Virus record (IMG/VR): IMGVR_UViG_2695420746_000012 | Strand: one strand, 5' to 3' | Length of the DNA stretch: 4,543 nucleotides | Source: a virus | Lineage: Duplodnaviria > Heunggongvirae > Uroviricota > Caudoviricetes | In this document: in pieces, positions 1 to 4,543 of the stretch | Layout: every line of letters starts with the position of its first letter | Numbering within the stretch: the first letter of the stretch is position 1 | The notes under the pieces: generated by a model | What the model saw: the letters and a program-made list of their open reading frames with translations, nothing else | Database searches by the model: none | What the model was told of the DNA's origin: nothing | Translations under genes and position numbers: made by a program

Positions 1-11
1 CGCGTTATTAG

Positions 12-55
12 TTATCTTATTCTCAAATTGTGTTACGATAATCCGAGCGGATAAT
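12..55 (+). promoter_or_regulatory. Candidate telN promoter elements (uncertain)
   Basis: Two GATAAT hexamers (37-42 and 50-55) lie within a GATAATC direct repeat (37-43, 50-56). TTGTGT at 28-33 is a possible -35 for the second one with a 16-bp spacer, but that would start transcription inside the telN Shine-Dalgarno, so the true promoter may lie upstream of the window. Confidence 0.2.
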
Positions 56-68
56 CAGGAGAGGAAAG

Positions 69-1964
69 ATGAGCAAAGTAAAAATCGGTGAATTAATAAA
101 CTCACTTGTTAGCGATGTTGAGTCAATAGATAACTCTGACCGTCCTCAAGGGGAAAAAACAAAAAAAATAAAGGCTGTTGCATTAAAATTTAAAAATGCA
201 TTATTTAATGACAAGCGAAAGTTTAGGGGGAAAGGATTAGAAAAAAGAATTACAGCCAACACATTCAATGCCTATATGAGCAGGGCCAGAAAACGGTTTG
301 ATGATAAACTTCATCATAGCTTTGAAAAAAATATACATCGCCTATCTGAAAAGTATCCTTTATATAATGAGGAGCTATTGTCATGGCTTTCTCTACCTGC
401 TGCCGATATTCGCCAAAGAATGTCAGCTTTACAGACAAAATTAAAATTAATTCTCCCTTTATCAGAAGATTTATCTAATATAAGAATTGGTGATAACAAA
501 AGTCATAATAAGTTATTAAAATTATCAAATAAATATAAAGAGTGGCAATTCGCCATTTCTGATTTAACTAGCGATAACTGGAAAGATAAGCGCGATTATT
601 TATATAAATTACTACAGCAAGGATCTGCCTTACTTGAGGAGTTGAATCAGCTAAAAGTTAACCATGAGATTCTCTATCATCTTCAACTAAGCCCTGCCGA
701 ACGAGCATCTATCCAGCAACGATGGGCGGACGTTCTGCACAATAAGAAACGTAACGTGGTGGTCATTGATTACCCTAAATATATGCAAGCTATTTACGAT
801 ATTATAAATAGCCCTGCTACATTAAATAATCTAAACACTCGTTCAGGTATGGCTCCTTTGGCATTTGCACTTGCTGCATTGTCAGGAAGACGAATGATTG
901 AGATTATGTATCAAGGTACATTTACTGTTTCTGGTAAGTATACCGTTGATTTTTTAGGCCAAGCTAAAAAAAGAACTTCTGATGATATAACCAGAAAAAT
1001 ATATACATTATGCGAAGCAAAAACATTTGTTTATTTAATAAATGTACTTCGCTCATGCCCAGCAGCATCTGATTTTGATGATGTCGTTAAAGGTTATGGA
1101 GATAACGACACACGCTCTGAAAACGGACGTATTAATGCCATATTAGCAAAGGCTTTTAACCCGTGGGTTAAATCATTTTTCAAAGATGACCGCCGTGTTT
1201 ATAAAGATAGTCGTGCTATTTATGCCCGTATTGCGTATGAAATGTTTTTCCGCGTAGATCCTCGTTGGAAAAACGTAGATGAGGATGTTTTCTTTATGGA
1301 AATTTTAGGCCATGACGATGAAAACACTCAATTACACTATAAGCAATTCAAGCTGGCCAACTTCTCAAAGACATGGAGGCCAAATACTGGAAACGAAAAT
1401 ACCAGGCTGGAAGCATTGCAGCAGCTTGATGACAAAATGCCTGGATTCGCCAGAGGAGATGCCGGGGTTCGTCTGCATAACACAGTTAAGCAGCTGGTAG
1501 AGCAGGACCCCTCTATAAAAATCACGAACAGCACTCTAAGAGCATTCAAATTTAGCCCAACAATGATTAGTCGATACCTGGAATTTGCTGCTGATGCTCT
1601 GGGGCAATTTGTTGGCGAAAATGGACAATGGCAGCTGAAAATAGATACTCCAGAAATCGTTATGCCTGACGAAGAAGAGCTGGTAGCAATACCTGAACAG
1701 ACGGATGAATTATCAGAGGATGACGATCTGGATGACGACGAAATTGAGATAGAGGAAGAGGAAGAGGAAGAGAGCGTAGAAGAACAGCAACCGCCCGCGC
1801 CTTCTTCACCTGTATCTAAGCCGGTATTTAAGCCTGTGAGAAATATTGGTGATGGCTCATACGTTGTTGAGTTTCATTATAATGGCCAGAATTATGCTTG
1901 GTCCGGCAGTGCAAACAGCCCTATGTCAGCAATGCAGTTAGCATGGCTGACATATTTCGGATAA
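69..1964 (+). CDS. telN: Protelomerase (telomere resolvase) TelN, N15 family
   Basis: 631-aa ORF with Shine-Dalgarno AGGAGAGGA at 57-65 before the ATG at 69. From memory it matches phage N15 TelN along its whole length, including MSKVKIGELI at the N-terminus, SRAIYARIAYEMFFRVDPRW, and the C-terminal YAWSG motif. Tyr424 (LHYKQF), Arg275, Lys300 and His415 sit at positions I recall as TelN active-site residues. An acidic Glu/Asp-rich linker precedes the C-terminal domain, as in TelN/TelK. Confidence 0.95.
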   Translation: MSKVKIGELINSLVSDVESIDNSDRPQGEKTKKIKAVALKFKNALFNDKRKFRGKGLEKRITANTFNAYMSRARKRFDDKLHHSFEKNIHRLSEKYPLYNEELLSWLSLPAADIRQRMSALQTKLKLILPLSEDLSNIRIGDNKSHNKLLKLSNKYKEWQFAISDLTSDNWKDKRDYLYKLLQQGSALLEELNQLKVNHEILYHLQLSPAERASIQQRWADVLHNKKRNVVVIDYPKYMQAIYDIINSPATLNNLNTRSGMAPLAFALAALSGRRMIEIMYQGTFTVSGKYTVDFLGQAKKRTSDDITRKIYTLCEAKTFVYLINVLRSCPAASDFDDVVKGYGDNDTRSENGRINAILAKAFNPWVKSFFKDDRRVYKDSRAIYARIAYEMFFRVDPRWKNVDEDVFFMEILGHDDENTQLHYKQFKLANFSKTWRPNTGNENTRLEALQQLDDKMPGFARGDAGVRLHNTVKQLVEQDPSIKITNSTLRAFKFSPTMISRYLEFAADALGQFVGENGQWQLKIDTPEIVMPDEEELVAIPEQTDELSEDDDLDDDEIEIEEEEEEESVEEQQPPAPSSPVSKPVFKPVRNIGDGSYVVEFHYNGQNYAWSGSANSPMSAMQLAWLTYFG

Positions 1965-1975
1965 AGCATACGGTA

Positions 1976-2008
1976 AAGGCACCGAATTATCGGTGCCTTG
2001 TTGTGTTG
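1976..2008. terminator. Intrinsic terminator hairpin between convergent telN and the antirepressor remnant
   Basis: Perfect 10-bp inverted repeat AAGGCACCGA (1976-1985) / TCGGTGCCTT (1990-1999) with loop ATTA, followed on the + strand by the T-rich GTTGTGTTG (2000-2008). It starts 12 bp after the telN stop; on the - strand it is followed by the weaker TTTACCGTATGCTTTAT. Confidence 0.6.
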
Positions 2009-2009
2009 C

Positions 2010-2174
2010 CTACCTCGCCTGCCCCTTTTCGTCCTCATCAAACTTTCTGATGGCCGTAGAATCAATACCCGACGCCATACACACATCAGATGCAACAAAC
2101 CACGGTTCGCCGTTAATCATCACTACACGAACCTGATGCTCTTCCGGAAAGGAAAAGACTGCTAACGCGCTCAT
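2010..2174 (-). pseudogene. Truncated phage antirepressor, BRO-N/Ant N-terminal domain fragment (54 aa)
   Basis: My own translation of the - strand (below the ORF track's length cutoff): MSALAVFSFPEEHQVRVVMINGEPWFVASDVCMASGIDSTAIRKFDEDEKGQAR. It carries the BRO-N hallmark (FxF...R-hydrophobic-I-[DN]-GEPWFVA-DV...DDEKG) and has a strong Shine-Dalgarno AAGGAGG (2180-2186, - strand) 5 nt before the ATG at 2174. It stops at 2010-2012, right against the telN terminator hairpin, whereas full antirepressors are roughly 200-300 aa. Confidence 0.6.
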
Positions 2175-2404
2175 TCAGCCTCCTTATCGTGCAGCAATTG
2201 CGACGAGAGCGATGCTGAATACCCCTGTGCTTCGTGTGTTAGCTCACACGCAATTTGAAGGAGTTTCCCTGCTTCTGAGAGATAAATCGACGCCTCACAA
2301 CTGGAGATTGTCCGATGGGCTGATGATACGAGCGCATAGACCTGAGCCAGACGTTCATCCAACGATTCCAGCAGGCCAACAGTGTTCATTTTTACCTGAT
2401 TCAT
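2171..2404 (-). CDS. Hypothetical 77-aa protein, translationally coupled upstream of the antirepressor fragment (Icd-like by position only)
   Basis: ORF with Shine-Dalgarno GAGGTGG about 6 nt before the ATG at 2404. Its TGA stop overlaps the antirepressor ATG (ATGA at 2171-2174). No sequence family recognised; the placement matches icd in P1 immI / N15 immA. Confidence 0.5.
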   Translation of the reverse strand: MNQVKMNTVGLLESLDERLAQVYALVSSAHRTISSCEASIYLSEAGKLLQIACELTHEAQGYSASLSSQLLHDKEAE

Positions 2405-2565
2405 GCAGCCACCTCGCGCACCGGAATACGGGCAGACAATACCAGGACAAACCGGCTGGCGAACTGGCGACGAGCTTCCCGTTCAGATGACGCGATAGTG
2501 GAAAGATGATGGATGTGTGACTTTTTGTCTGTGCGAACGACTGCCGCAAATTTGAATTTGAACAT
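2401..2565 (-). CDS. Small leader ORF (54 aa from ATG 2565), ORFx-like, coupled to the next gene
   Basis: The ORF track starts this frame at a GTG (2613) inside an RNA hairpin; the first ATG is at 2565 with a weak AAGAG Shine-Dalgarno. Its TGA stop overlaps the ATG of the 77-aa ORF (ATGA at 2401-2404). Protein from the ATG: MFKFKFAAVVRTDKKSHIHHLSTIASSEREARRQFASRFVLVLSARIPVREVAA. Whether it is translated is uncertain. Confidence 0.3.
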   Translation of the reverse strand: MFKFKFAAVVRTDKKSHIHHLSTIASSEREARRQFASRFVLVLSARIPVREVAA

Positions 2566-2589
2566 GGTATGCACTCTTGTTTGGAAGAA

Positions 2590-2700
2590 CAGTGCTACCA
2601 CCAGAGTTCTCACGCTCTAAGGGGGTGGTAGCCCAGACGGGGGTGAGAATACCGGCCCAAACGATACCGGCCAGCCTTTCGGCTGCCCCGCCTGAGCCAC
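2590..2700 (-). ncRNA. Candidate structured regulatory RNA / leader (c4/CI/CA-like immunity RNA region); boundaries approximate
   Basis: In - strand sense: a 5-bp hairpin with GAAA tetraloop (CAGCC-GAAA-GGCTG, + coordinates 2672-2685); a 9-bp stem GCTACCACC/GGTGGTAGC (2594-2602 / 2624-2632) enclosing a 4-bp hairpin with loop CGUGAGAA; and a single-stranded UUCUCAC (2643-2649) complementary to that loop. It sits directly upstream of the ORFx-like RBS. Confidence 0.3.
2606..2615 (-). repeat. 10-nt motif GCGTGAGAAC (- sense), copy 2, in a hairpin loop (stem AGAG/CTCT, 2603-2618)
   Basis: Exact 10-mer also present at 2780-2789. Here it lies in the loop of a 4-bp hairpin nested within the 9-bp stem 2594-2632. 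Confidence 0.5.
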
Positions 2701-2730
2701 CATAATTCGGATATGCGCAGGCTTATATAC

Positions 2731-2757
2731 ACACAAAAAAACACGCTGGCGCGTGTT
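2731..2757 (-). terminator. Intrinsic terminator within the leader of the antirepressor operon
   Basis: - strand: 7-bp stem (+ coordinates 2740-2746 / 2751-2757, AACACGC/GCGTGTT), loop of 4 nt, followed by UUUUUGUGU (+ strand A-run 2733-2739). It lies between the two GCGTGAGAAC hairpins. Confidence 0.45.
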
Positions 2758-2776
2758 GTGCGTCGCTTGGGATATT

Positions 2777-2792
2777 CGGGTTCTCACGCCCG
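2777..2792 (-). repeat. 10-nt motif GCGTGAGAAC (- sense), copy 1, in a hairpin loop (stem CGGG/CCCG)
   Basis: Exact 10-mer at 2780-2789, flanked by the 4-bp inverted repeat CGGG (2777-2780) / CCCG (2789-2792). Same loop as copy 2 but a different stem sequence, i.e. compensatory pairing. Confidence 0.5.
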
Positions 2793-2812
2793 GCTGCGGG
2801 ATTTACCGCAGC
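2793..2812. promoter_or_regulatory. Operator-like palindrome GCTGCGG-N6-CCGCAGC
   Basis: 7-bp perfect inverted repeat separated by 6 bp (GATTTA), immediately downstream (- sense) of the candidate promoter. Could be a repressor operator or the 5' hairpin of the leader RNA. Confidence 0.3.
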
Positions 2813-2818
2813 GGAGTA

Positions 2819-2848
2819 ACTTTACCGTCAAAACGACGCACACGTCAA
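2819..2848 (-). promoter_or_regulatory. Candidate sigma70 promoter for the leader / antirepressor operon
   Basis: - strand -35 TTGACG (+ coordinates 2843-2848), 18-bp spacer, -10 TAAAGT (2819-2824). A second TTGACG at 2826-2831 has no good -10. Weak match, inferred mainly from position. Confidence 0.2.
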
Positions 2849-2868
2849 TAATTTGCAAAGACATTTTA

Positions 2869-2900
2869 CCCCGTGACCAGTCACGGGGACAGGTGTTTTT
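2869..2900. terminator. GC-rich hairpin with flanking A/T runs; probable terminator separating the four-gene operon from the antirepressor module
   Basis: Inverted repeat CCCCGTGA(C) / (G)TCACGGGG (2869-2888). On the + strand it is followed by ACAGGTGTTTTTAT; on the - strand it is preceded by an A-run and followed by TAAAATGTCTTTG. It lies 62 nt downstream of the - strand operon stop (2950), so it plausibly ends that operon, but the U-tract is better in + orientation. Confidence 0.4.
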
Positions 2901-2949
2901 ATAGTTTGCTTGAACGAGTGATCAGAAGTTGATCGTTAATCAAAGGCCA

Positions 2950-3237
2950 TTACGGATTAAGAGAGTGGAAATACCTAACTAACTTACCGGCATCATCACA
3001 TTTTTCTTTATCTTCTTCCTTAACATAGCCGCGACAGAAGGCTGAATAAAATTTCGCATTTTCAGAAGCAAAAGCAGCCGTCGAAAGGAGCAGTTCTTTG
3101 CATGATTCTTTTGATGCAGCATCGGGATTATTTTTACATGCAAGCTCCGCTGATGAGTTAATAACAGAAATGCTATCTTCCTGGGCATAAACCGCAGCAG
3201 AAAAGGCAAAACATAAAACCAAAATAAAACTCTTCAC
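2950..3237 (-). CDS. Small secreted protein (95 aa, predicted signal peptide, 4 Cys in mature part), unknown function
   Basis: The ORF track begins this frame at a GTG (3261) with no Shine-Dalgarno. A GTG at 3237 is preceded by a strong AGGAG (3243-3247) with a 5-nt spacer, giving MKSFILVLCFAFSAAVYA|QEDS..., a typical Sec signal peptide. The mature part is Lys/Glu-rich with four cysteines. Last gene of the operon. Confidence 0.55.
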   Translation of the reverse strand: MKSFILVLCFAFSAAVYAQEDSISVINSSAELACKNNPDAASKESCKELLLSTAAFASENAKFYSAFCRGYVKEEDKEKCDDAGKLVRYFHSLNP

Positions 3238-3257
3238 TTTATCTCCTGTAACAGTTA

Positions 3258-3659
3258 TCACAACTCAATCAACTTTTTAGCATCAGCCATACGCTTCAAC
3301 CAGTAATCAACAATCGGTTGCTCATCCACAGAATGTTTACCTGGTATAACTCGCCAGCTGTCTGCCGAAAGGCTACCGTATCTATGCGGGAAAAGGCATT
3401 TCTTTAGCTCCTGCCATGTGCTAGGAAAACCGTCTGCCAAAGTGCCAATTAACAGAAAAGGGACAAAAATCAGGGCTACAAACCATCGGGCAAGAAAGTG
3501 CTCAACAATAACCTCTTCACCGTTATAGTAATACGCATACGTATCCCATATACGAATTTTCCTTACCCTAAAAATGGCCTTATGCTGAGAACGACTTAGC
3601 TTGATGCGAATGTATCCCTTATCCAAGAGGGATTGGTGTTTGTATGATTGAACAGCCAT
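3258..3659 (-). CDS. Hypothetical membrane protein (133 aa from ATG 3659; one central TM helix)
   Basis: The track starts this frame at a GTG (3671) overlapping the upstream gene; the first ATG (3659) is 2 nt after the upstream stop and is preceded by GTGGGG. It has a basic N-terminal region (IRIKLSRSQHKAIFRVRKIRIW) and a hydrophobic segment WFVALIFVPFLLIGTLADGF. No family recognised. Confidence 0.5.
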   Translation of the reverse strand: MAVQSYKHQSLLDKGYIRIKLSRSQHKAIFRVRKIRIWDTYAYYYNGEEVIVEHFLARWFVALIFVPFLLIGTLADGFPSTWQELKKCLFPHRYGSLSADSWRVIPGKHSVDEQPIVDYWLKRMADAKKLIEL

Positions 3660-3661
3660 TT

Positions 3662-3988
3662 TTAACCCCACTCACCATCAGCAAACAAAGCGTTATACTC
3701 TGACAATGGTAGACGGTTGCCCTCGATGTAGAGATTCAGTTCATACTTCGTCTCCGGGTTTTCCTTGTCGGCTCGTTCCCAACGCTCAGCAGCCTTACAC
3801 GCCAATAATTCCACTGCTTTCAGATAATCCTCCGTACGGAACCAGCCAAAGATAAGGCCACGATCTGTTACAGCCCAGGCAACCTTTTTTTCTTCCTCCT
3901 GGATAGCCTTAATGCGTCGATCGCATTCATCCCGGCAAAACTGCAGCTGACGGTAATCAAGTTTGTCCAAAAATGCAGTAGTAGACAT
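3662..3988 (-). CDS. Hypothetical soluble protein (108 aa)
   Basis: ATG at 3988 preceded by Shine-Dalgarno GGGGAG, which lies in the last codons of the upstream gene, 4 nt after its stop. No hydrophobic segment; charged and helical-looking. No family recognised. Confidence 0.55.
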   Translation of the reverse strand: MSTTAFLDKLDYRQLQFCRDECDRRIKAIQEEEKKVAWAVTDRGLIFGWFRTEDYLKAVELLACKAAERWERADKENPETKYELNLYIEGNRLPLSEYNALFADGEWG

Positions 3989-3992
3989 ATTT

Positions 3993-4184
3993 TTACTCCC
4001 CGTTCACCGAAAAATCACGATAGAAACATTTCCACATACGATAAGTCTGCGCGAGTTGTTCACCACGAAACATCGCCTTCCTGGCCTTCATGTTTTCCTT
4101 GTGAGACTTTCGATCTATGAACCAAAACCATTGCTGGAACACACAAAGCAAGAGACACAAAGATAATATCCACTGATTACCCAT
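3993..4184 (-). CDS. Hypothetical small membrane protein (63 aa, N-terminal TM helix)
   Basis: Taking the ATG at 4184: MGNQWILSLCLLLCVFQQWFWFIDRK..., an N-terminal hydrophobic helix followed by a basic tail. The Shine-Dalgarno is weak (AGGG about 9 nt upstream). The same frame stays open upstream across the IS2 boundary, so the true 5' end is uncertain and the gene may be IS-truncated. Confidence 0.4.
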   Translation of the reverse strand: MGNQWILSLCLLLCVFQQWFWFIDRKSHKENMKARKAMFRGEQLAQTYRMWKCFYRDFSVNGE

Positions 4185-4220
4185 AGAAAGCGCCCTGCTC
4201 TTCGTAGCTGCATGGGCTAT

Positions 4221-4261
4221 TAGACTGGCCCCCTGAATCTCCAGACAACCAGTATCACTTA
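4221..4261 (+). repeat. IS2 left terminal inverted repeat (IRL), approximate extent
   Basis: Terminal approximately 41 bp of IS2 beginning TAGACTGGCCCCC; the right-hand copy lies outside the window. Confidence 0.7.
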
Positions 4262-4311
4262 AATAAGTGATAGTCTTAATACTAGTTTTTAGACTAGTCA
4301 TTGGAGTACAG

Positions 4312-4543
4312 ATGATTGATGTCTTAGGGCCGGAGAAACGCAGACGGCGTACCACACAGGAAAAGATCGCAATTGTTCAGCAGAGCTTTGAACCGGGGAT
4401 GACGGTCTCCCTCGTTGCCCGGCAACATGGTGTAGCAGCCAGCCAGTTATTTCTCTGGCGTAAGCAATACCAGGAAGGAAGTCTTACTGCTGTGGCCGCC
4501 GGAGAACAGGTTGTTCCTGCCTCTGAACTTGCTGCCGCCATGA
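4312..4543 (+). CDS. insC: IS2 OrfA (transposase regulatory protein InsC), 5' part only
   Basis: ATG at 4312; translation [77 protein letters not shown]... is the IS2 OrfA N-terminus with its helix-turn-helix. The ORF runs off the window end with no stop, which is why it is absent from the ORF track. Confidence 0.9.

Follow-up and report, generated by a model that had tools for sequence, protein, structure and literature searches.

The window, the whole 4,543-nucleotide stretch of DNA analysed here, most probably encodes a TelN/TelK-type protelomerase that is functional and belongs to an N15-like temperate phage-plasmid in a Shigella sonnei isolate; we put the probability of this reading at about 0.9. 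An exact-protein match identified the window as the complete 4543-bp contig CXCD01000222.1 of the S. sonnei draft assembly GCA_001260475.1. An independent Logan assembly of run ERR025705 contained a contig identical to window positions 5-4247. Positions 1-4221 showed 99.9% DNA identity to E. coli plasmid pRHBSTW-00124_4 (CP056845.1), 96% to phage PhiR46_1 (PV340565.1), deposited as linear, and 96-99% to about two dozen further plasmids from E. coli, Shigella, E. fergusonii and E. albertii. In 16 of the 5426 complete E. coli genomes, 80% or more of the window was present. PhiR46_1, YDC107_1 (CP025712.1), pRHBSTW-00124_4 and the S. sonnei 6207 plasmid NZ_CP061364.1 belong to the same lineage as the window, with TelN identity of 97.8-99.5% and DNA identity over 1-4221 of 96-99.9%; all four share with it the telN-to-repA gene order, a 54-aa truncated anti-repressor (Ant) and a 95-aa secreted protein. 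A literature search on PhiR46_1 found no paper.

The N15-order maintenance module is sopBA - tel site - telN - anti-repressor operon - repA - cB/cro/Q. The part of it that lies within the window comprises telN, the anti-repressor operon, a gp35 homologue and the 3' end of repA; genes beyond the window were seen in relatives only. These relatives carry sopAB, repA, cI/cro/Q and tail genes, tail fibre genes included. An earlier note, made from the sequence alone, had proposed looking for repA, sopAB and cB elsewhere on the replicon. Only the last 14 codons of repA are present in the window, which has neither sopAB nor cB; the relatives supply sopAB and a repA. The note's suggestion of a distinct N15-like phage-plasmid was borne out by the 96-99.9% DNA identity to PhiR46_1 and pRHBSTW-00124_4 combined with a TelN identity to N15 of only 77.8%.

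The protelomerase (telomere resolvase) gene extends from 69 to 1964 on the plus strand, starts with ATG and is preceded by a ribosome-binding site, AGGAGAGG, at 57-64. It encodes a 631-aa protein, WP_052981261.1, exactly the reading frame that the earlier note had described as TelN. NCBI names this protein 'protelomerase family protein [Shigella sonnei]'; clustering at 90% identity groups it with proteins of E. coli, S. sonnei and E. marmotae, 682 members in all, most of them encoded on contigs of 45-50 kb. Pfam analysis revealed all four phage protelomerase domains in order, at 89-171 bits against gathering cutoffs of 27-28. The N-terminal domain (TelK_N, PF22853, aa 4-78, 2e-41) and the muzzle domain (TelK_muzzle, PF20849, aa 81-198, 8.6e-51) are encoded at 78-662, the catalytic domain (ResT-TelK_cat, PF16684, aa 257-427, 4.4e-25) at 837-1349, and the stirrup DNA-binding domain (TelK_stirrup, PF20818, aa 443-533, 6e-48) at 1395-1667, all on the plus strand. 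In a search of PDB chains, phiKO2 TelK (2V6E) was the sole close solved relative, matching residues 1-536 with E=5.6e-295. Alignment showed that the stirrup is followed by a D/E-rich acidic linker at about aa 536-575 and then, at about aa 584-631, by a small conserved C-terminal domain with the pattern KPxFK...GDG.Y..EF..G..YAWSG...AM..AW; both are encoded at 1674-1961 on the plus strand. N15 TelN needs its C-terminal domain neither for resolution nor for end protection (PMC12624138). Judged from its sequence, whose likeness to protelomerases goes far beyond chance, the 631-codon gene is a genuine, apparently intact TelN/TelK-type phage protelomerase gene.

When the protein was compared with phage genomes by tblastn, identity was 97.8-97.9% to PhiR46_1 and YDC107_1, 77.8% to N15 TelN, 73.1% to TelK, 43.4% to PY54 Tel and 27-33% to the VP882/phiHAP-1 group. 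The N15 TelN, TelK and PY54 Tel values each apply across at least 84% of the length, and that for N15 TelN applies to the full length. The comparison with TelN, TelK and PY54 Tel had been put forward in the earlier note. The four protelomerase domains, the intact catalytic hexad and the lack of any integrase family match place the protein with the TelN/TelK-type enzymes and not with ordinary tyrosine recombinases. N15 TelN (gp29) is likewise 631 aa long and agrees in domain order and catalytic residues; the two telN genes lack megablast-level DNA similarity, in keeping with the description of the protein as close to N15 TelN but not identical. Relative to TelK, identity is nearly continuous over residues 1-536, the crystallised core of muzzle, catalytic and stirrup domains; however, TelK has 640 aa and a longer acidic linker, and comes from another host genus (Klebsiella). 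PY54 Tel, VP882, phiHAP-1, TelA and ResT share with the window protein the catalytic domain and its R...K...(K/Y)xxR...H...Y pattern. Unlike the window protein, the VP882 and phiHAP-1 protelomerases lack most of the muzzle region.

The catalytic hexad R275, K300, K379, R382, H415 and Y424 was invariant in all seven aligned protelomerases. A profile of this seven-protein alignment reached ResT 8VS5 (6e-9) and TelA 4F41 (8e-6) in the catalytic domain only. In the profile alignment the hexad falls on TelA R255, K286, Y363, R366, H394 and Y405, which are the listed active-site residues of TelA (PMC3558466); chain 4F41 is from the R255A crystal, and the R255 position reads Ala there. TelA and ResT have Tyr where the window protein has K379 (PMC3558466). 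The nucleophile Tyr424 lies in QLHYKQFK (codon TAT, 1338-1340) and aligns with Tyr425 of N15 TelN and TelK. The earlier note had thus picked the right residue in LHYKQF; the TelN numbering that it gave for this residue was wrong, because one residue is missing near position 307 relative to N15 TelN and TelK, so that the nucleophile is 424 and not 425. The TelN(Y425F) mutant is catalytically dead (PMC12624138). The window enzyme is expected to be active, given its 73-78% identity to the biochemically characterised TelN and TelK, its intact active site and the identical telO core in its relatives.

Positions 1-68 on the plus strand form the telN upstream region and the right edge of a tos-like region, as seen from the sequence and from a four-way alignment with relatives, N15 and phiKO2. 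The motif TTGTGTTACGAT at 29-40 is nearly invariant in the window lineage, N15 and phiKO2, with T in place of C in phiKO2. It resembles the ATTGTGTT repeats on the flanks of the tel palindrome. In a relative, the repeat copies to the right of the palindrome, on the telN side, read ATTATGTGCT and ATTGTGTTCT (twice) and follow the pattern ATT(G/A)TGT(G/T). TTGTGTTACGAT is the last repeat copy, the innermost flanking repeat-like motif and the sole part of the tel flank kept in the window. A promoter scan gave no convincing consensus sigma-70 call for telN in 1-68 or in the relative's upstream region; the 1-68 region presumably has a promoter function.

No tel palindrome was found within the window: in relatives the site lies 123 nt to the left of the contig's start. 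The telRL-type palindrome that the earlier note had expected is present instead in the 99.9%-identical plasmid CP056845.1, as a perfect 42-bp palindrome, ACATAATTCCCCATTATACGC|GCGTATAATGGGGAATTATGT, centred 123 nt to the left of window position 1. Its 22-bp core, CCATTATACGCGCGTATAATGG, is identical to telO of N15 and phiKO2, and the phiKO2 target shares the CGCGCG centre. The right arm of the relatives' palindrome continues ATTATGTGCTGAT as in phiKO2, whereas the outer left arm differs from N15 L3. The window lineage also resembles N15 in having sopA upstream (in relatives), and the anti-repressor operon, gp35 and repA downstream.

Ends of deposited records point to the same position. The PhiR46_1 record is linear, with an annotated telL at bases 1-22. 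Eight plasmid records stop 30-118 nt upstream of window position 1, none of them past the hairpin position at 123 nt; together with the phage record the range is 30-134 nt, every record ending at the hairpin position or, in the case of the plasmids, before reaching it. Such clustering of record ends near the palindrome would be very unlikely if records started arbitrarily on a 46-kb circle. Three of the four records whose topology was inspected are declared linear, and two of these three are plasmids. Circular deposits also occur among the relatives, e.g. CP056845.1 and NZ_CP061364.1; despite its circular label, the latter starts 11 nt away from the centre of the palindrome. CP088562.1 (75.5 kb, 'circular') contains a 10.8-kb inverted duplication with 98% identity, centred on telO and arranged as repA-telN-tip-telN'-repA'. 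Such a fold-back is expected if the sequence was read past a hairpin tip or through a telLL junction that had not been resolved. The relatives thus provide strong evidence that DNA of this lineage is linear and hairpin-ended. By extension from the relatives, the replicon of this isolate would be complete, linear and replicating. Both assemblies of the isolate stop, free of any IS, 123-127 nt from the expected tip; these stops are consistent with loss of coverage at a physical end, and prove nothing.

TelN, TelK and TelA cut a palindrome on the circularised phage genome or at replicated telomere junctions, and the ends are resealed as hairpins (PMC2847241). By homology with TelK and TelN, a dimer of the window protelomerase would bind the tel palindrome, which would arise when an infecting genome circularises through cos (telRL) or when replication passes through a hairpin end (telLL/telRR). 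Tyr424 of each subunit would form a 3'-phosphotyrosyl nick, the two nicks being staggered by 6 bp across the central CGCGCG. The freed 5'-OH ends would then turn back on themselves, each attacking the opposite phosphotyrosine, and two covalently closed hairpin telomeres would form with no need of a cofactor. End-bound TelN blocks SbcCD, and catalysis is not needed for this (PMC12624138); the bound window protein probably also shields the hairpins from SbcCD. In the proposed arrangement telN would adjoin one telomere, followed by an anti-repressor operon controlled by a C4 RNA, a few small accessory genes and repA.

A G+C-rich hairpin with a 10-bp stem was found by terminator scan at 1976-1999, between the convergent telN and ant' genes. 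It is probably a bidirectional terminator; at the equivalent place, phiKO2 carries a terminator annotated as 'putative bidirectional'. The anti-repressor operon follows on the minus strand. Its last gene (2010-2174) encodes the 54-aa truncated anti-repressor, an N-terminal Bro-N fragment by Pfam and comparison with N15, which corresponds to residues 1-50 of N15 gp30 Ant, a protein of 264 aa. The genes before it in the operon encode an anti-repressor operon protein like N15 gp31 (2171-2404, 65% identity) and an Icd-like cell-division inhibitor homologous to N15 gp32 (2401-2565, 86% identity; NCBIfam NF033153, 9.9e-19). The operon leader at 2621-2825, also on the minus strand, was recognised with Rfam and contains a C4-type antisense RNA (2621-2707; C4, 75.2 bits), an isrK-like element with a terminator (2736-2812; isrK, 67 bits) and an a1/b1-like target (2773-2825; c4-a1b1, 43.3 bits, just under the 46.7 cutoff). 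The leader DNA is similar to the N15 cA region and to the P4 cI region.

Four small genes lie on the minus strand between the anti-repressor operon and repA (2950-4184), as defined from the ORF list and by comparison with N15. They encode a 95-aa secreted protein with four cysteines (2950-3237), a 133-aa protein with a hydrophobic segment (3258-3659), a homologue of N15 gp35 (3662-3988, 64% identity) and a 63-aa hydrophobic ORF (3993-4184). Three of the four, those for the 95-aa, 133-aa and 63-aa products, have no N15 counterpart. Whereas N15 has a full Ant, that of the window is truncated, and the places of N15 gp33, gp34 and gp36 hold unrelated small genes in the window. The earlier view that the region downstream of telN differs from N15 was therefore right for the truncated Ant and the three unmatched genes; it did not hold for the anti-repressor operon and the gp35 homologue, which are syntenic with N15.

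The 95-aa protein is confined to this E. coli/Shigella lineage. Among 5.8 billion proteins it formed only 10 clusters, several of them frameshifted, and among phages no homologue was found other than that of PhiR46_1. The PV340565.1 record labels it 'Spackle', but this label is unsupported: no PDB chain matched its sequence, the best E value being 0.73 for an unrelated chain. A Foldseek search against the PDB gave no match at E<=0.001; the query was a poor single-sequence AlphaFold model with a pLDDT of 61. PADLOC and NCBIfam detected no defence system among the small genes, and the only product named by NCBIfam was the Icd-like protein. The earlier note described such elements as platforms for accessory cargo; the window has small cargo genes, and nothing in it was found to resemble a resistance, virulence or defence gene. 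A separate study reported that Klebsiella telomere phages have a telocin-immunity pair between repA and the protelomerase gene, and that Shigella is among the telomere-phage genera. The small orphan genes of the window occupy the slot of that pair. We regard it as a long shot that the orphan genes at 2950-4184 form a new exclusion or toxin-immunity module.

The right end of the window is formed by an insertion sequence. The last 14 codons and stop of repA, encoding NSPCSYEEQGAFYG*, occupy the minus strand at 4177-4220, as determined by comparison with three repA genes (L001, L002 and L004). IS2 starts exactly at 4221, with the inverted repeat TAGACTGGCCCCCTGAATCTCC..., and runs on the plus strand to 4543, where the contig breaks off within the element; sequence comparison and Pfam showed that this left end of IS2 includes the start of orfA/insC (4312-4543). 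RepA is thus interrupted 14 codons before its stop and loses the residues NSPCSYEEQGAFYG, and the four small genes are parted from the rest of repA. The lost tail has no alignable counterpart at the C-terminus of N15 RepA; a conserved block, ASLY.TEFMD..S, lies upstream of the cut. The insertion is a property of the window and occurs in none of PhiR46_1, YDC107_1, pRHBSTW-00124_4 and NZ_CP061364.1. Extensions of 18 nt past IS2 (H105-H110) were rejected as chance similarity beside an unrelated IS2 copy on an F-type plasmid. Should the IS2-cut plasmid still replicate, the RepA tail would be dispensable, which we consider a speculative proposition.

Because IS2 interrupts repA, the element in this isolate could be damaged. 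On this reading the contig is a relic of a defective or decaying phage-plasmid with an IS2-inactivated repA, possibly captured on another replicon, in which telN is intact but idle. The junction between IS2 and repA was absent from all searched phage, plasmid and complete E. coli collections, the anti-repressor gene is cut to 54 aa, the gene for the 95-aa protein is frameshifted in several relatives, and S. sonnei genomes are rich in IS elements and fragment badly (bioRxiv 10.1101/2025.09.12.675607). However, the ORFs of the window are all intact, with 98-100% identity to their counterparts in complete elements. The truncated Ant is also found in PhiR46_1, which was deposited as a phage genome, and it is therefore a trait of the lineage and not a mark of decay. 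The 14 RepA residues lost to IS2 come from a tail not conserved with N15 RepA, and the conserved block is retained. In addition, the two independent assemblies stop at one IS-free left end near the expected physical end. We therefore consider a relic unlikely.

It could also be argued that a circular element encodes here an ordinary tyrosine recombinase or integrase with no more than a resemblance to TelN, since protelomerases have the same chemistry as tyrosine recombinases and type IB topoisomerases and part of the same catalytic fold (PMC3558466). No integrase family matched the ORF in Pfam at E<=0.01, however, whereas the muzzle and stirrup are among four domains far above threshold, and the best structural relative is TelK. 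Like TelN and TelK, the protein has Lys (K379) where tyrosine recombinases have His, and in the relatives a telO palindrome adjoins the gene. This reading is effectively refuted.

The NCBI protelomerase annotation, the near-identical deposited plasmids and phage, and a 2025 survey together show that the identification is correct and that the element is of an already known kind. That survey covered English gastrointestinal isolates, and S. sonnei accounted for most (84%) of the N15-like phage-plasmids in it; those surveyed had no resistance genes, virulence genes or telocin homologue (bioRxiv 10.1101/2025.09.12.675607). Only two kinds of feature are specific to the isolate: three amino acid substitutions relative to the nearest deposited TelN (T123A, G463R and E564D) and the IS2 insertion. 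The contig ought to be annotated as a piece of an N15-like telomere phage-plasmid and not as a cryptic plasmid or chromosomal fragment; otherwise the finding matters little. The correct label is relevant to surveillance because N15-like elements occur mostly in S. sonnei, whose IS elements fragment short-read assemblies. The lineage represents a natural TelN variant with 78% identity to N15 TelN, in which the telO core is kept and the outer left arm has diverged. For work on target specificity and on species-specific inhibition of SbcCD, this variant could serve as a modest resource.

The plasmid record CP088562.1 (75.5 kb) is labelled circular. In the stretch fetched from it (55500-66500; L013), we found an inverted duplication of 10.8 kb at 98% identity, whose centre is telO, the core of the hairpin-telomere palindrome, near 5372-5393 of L013. 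Gene copies in one arm are frameshifted. The duplication most likely arose from assembly reading through a hairpin telomere; other records of 62-91 kb, each with two places, may be of the same kind. The window is one entire contig. The NCBI assembly and an independent assembly of the same isolate's reads (Logan) both end at window 1-5, 123-127 nt from the hairpin tip of the relatives, and neither has a repeat or IS sequence at this left end. The shared stop may be due to read coverage being lost close to a physical end of the DNA.

Immediately 5′ of the protelomerase gene telN, TTGTGTTACGAT (29-40) is nearly invariant across this lineage, N15 and phiKO2, the phiKO2 copy having T in place of C, and the sequence around it is divergent among the three. 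It may serve in TelN binding or as a promoter element, and it resembles repeats on the flanks of the tel palindrome.

The leader of the icd/gp31/ant anti-repressor operon (2621-2825, minus strand) consists of a C4-type antisense RNA (2621-2707, 75 bits), an isrK-like element and its terminator (2736-2812, 67 bits) and an a1/b1 target match (2773-2825) that scored below threshold, all on the minus strand. It is 78-83% identical to N15 and P4 DNA. This leader is an anti-immunity switch under RNA control, in the style of P1, P4 and N15. The source assembly calls a 56-aa ORF here (2617-2787, minus strand), which has a weak Phage_ASH match and is named "ash family protein" in RefSeq relatives. The C4 and isrK elements underlie the entire ORF, which is probably a miscalled CDS.

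The anti-repressor adjoining telN (2010-2174, minus strand) has 54 aa and comprises the start of a Bro-N domain, whereas N15 gp30 has 264 aa. The truncation is common to phage PhiR46_1 and many plasmids; other relatives, whose alignments fall into three pieces, have a longer Bro-N gene. Thus, two variants are in circulation.

Four small minus-strand genes lie between this operon and repA, three of which are described here. The 95-aa protein (2950-3237) contains four cysteines and a signal peptide. It fell into 10 clusters among 5.8 billion proteins, confined to this E. coli/Shigella lineage, and its gene is frameshifted in several relatives. Its "Spackle" label in PV340565.1 was unsupported by sequence or fold searches, the latter made with a low-confidence model. 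The 133-aa protein (3258-3659), with one hydrophobic segment, has a homologue in Yersinia telomere phage P840 (41%); phages of Proteus, Salmonella, Escherichia and Pseudomonas have others (25-35%). A 63-aa hydrophobic ORF (3993-4184) overlaps the repA stop. These last two occupy the slot that contains telocin-immunity pairs in Klebsiella telomere phages.

The left end of an IS2 (4221-4543), oriented opposite to repA, cuts into the repA 3′ end (4177-4220), 14 codons ahead of the stop. None of the phage, plasmid or complete E. coli records in the collections searched has this junction. N15 RepA shows no conservation with the tail lost to IS2.

G+C content is 34-45% in telN (window 1-2000) but 49-52% in the anti-repressor operon (2000-2750), a contrast that suggests modules of mosaic origin.
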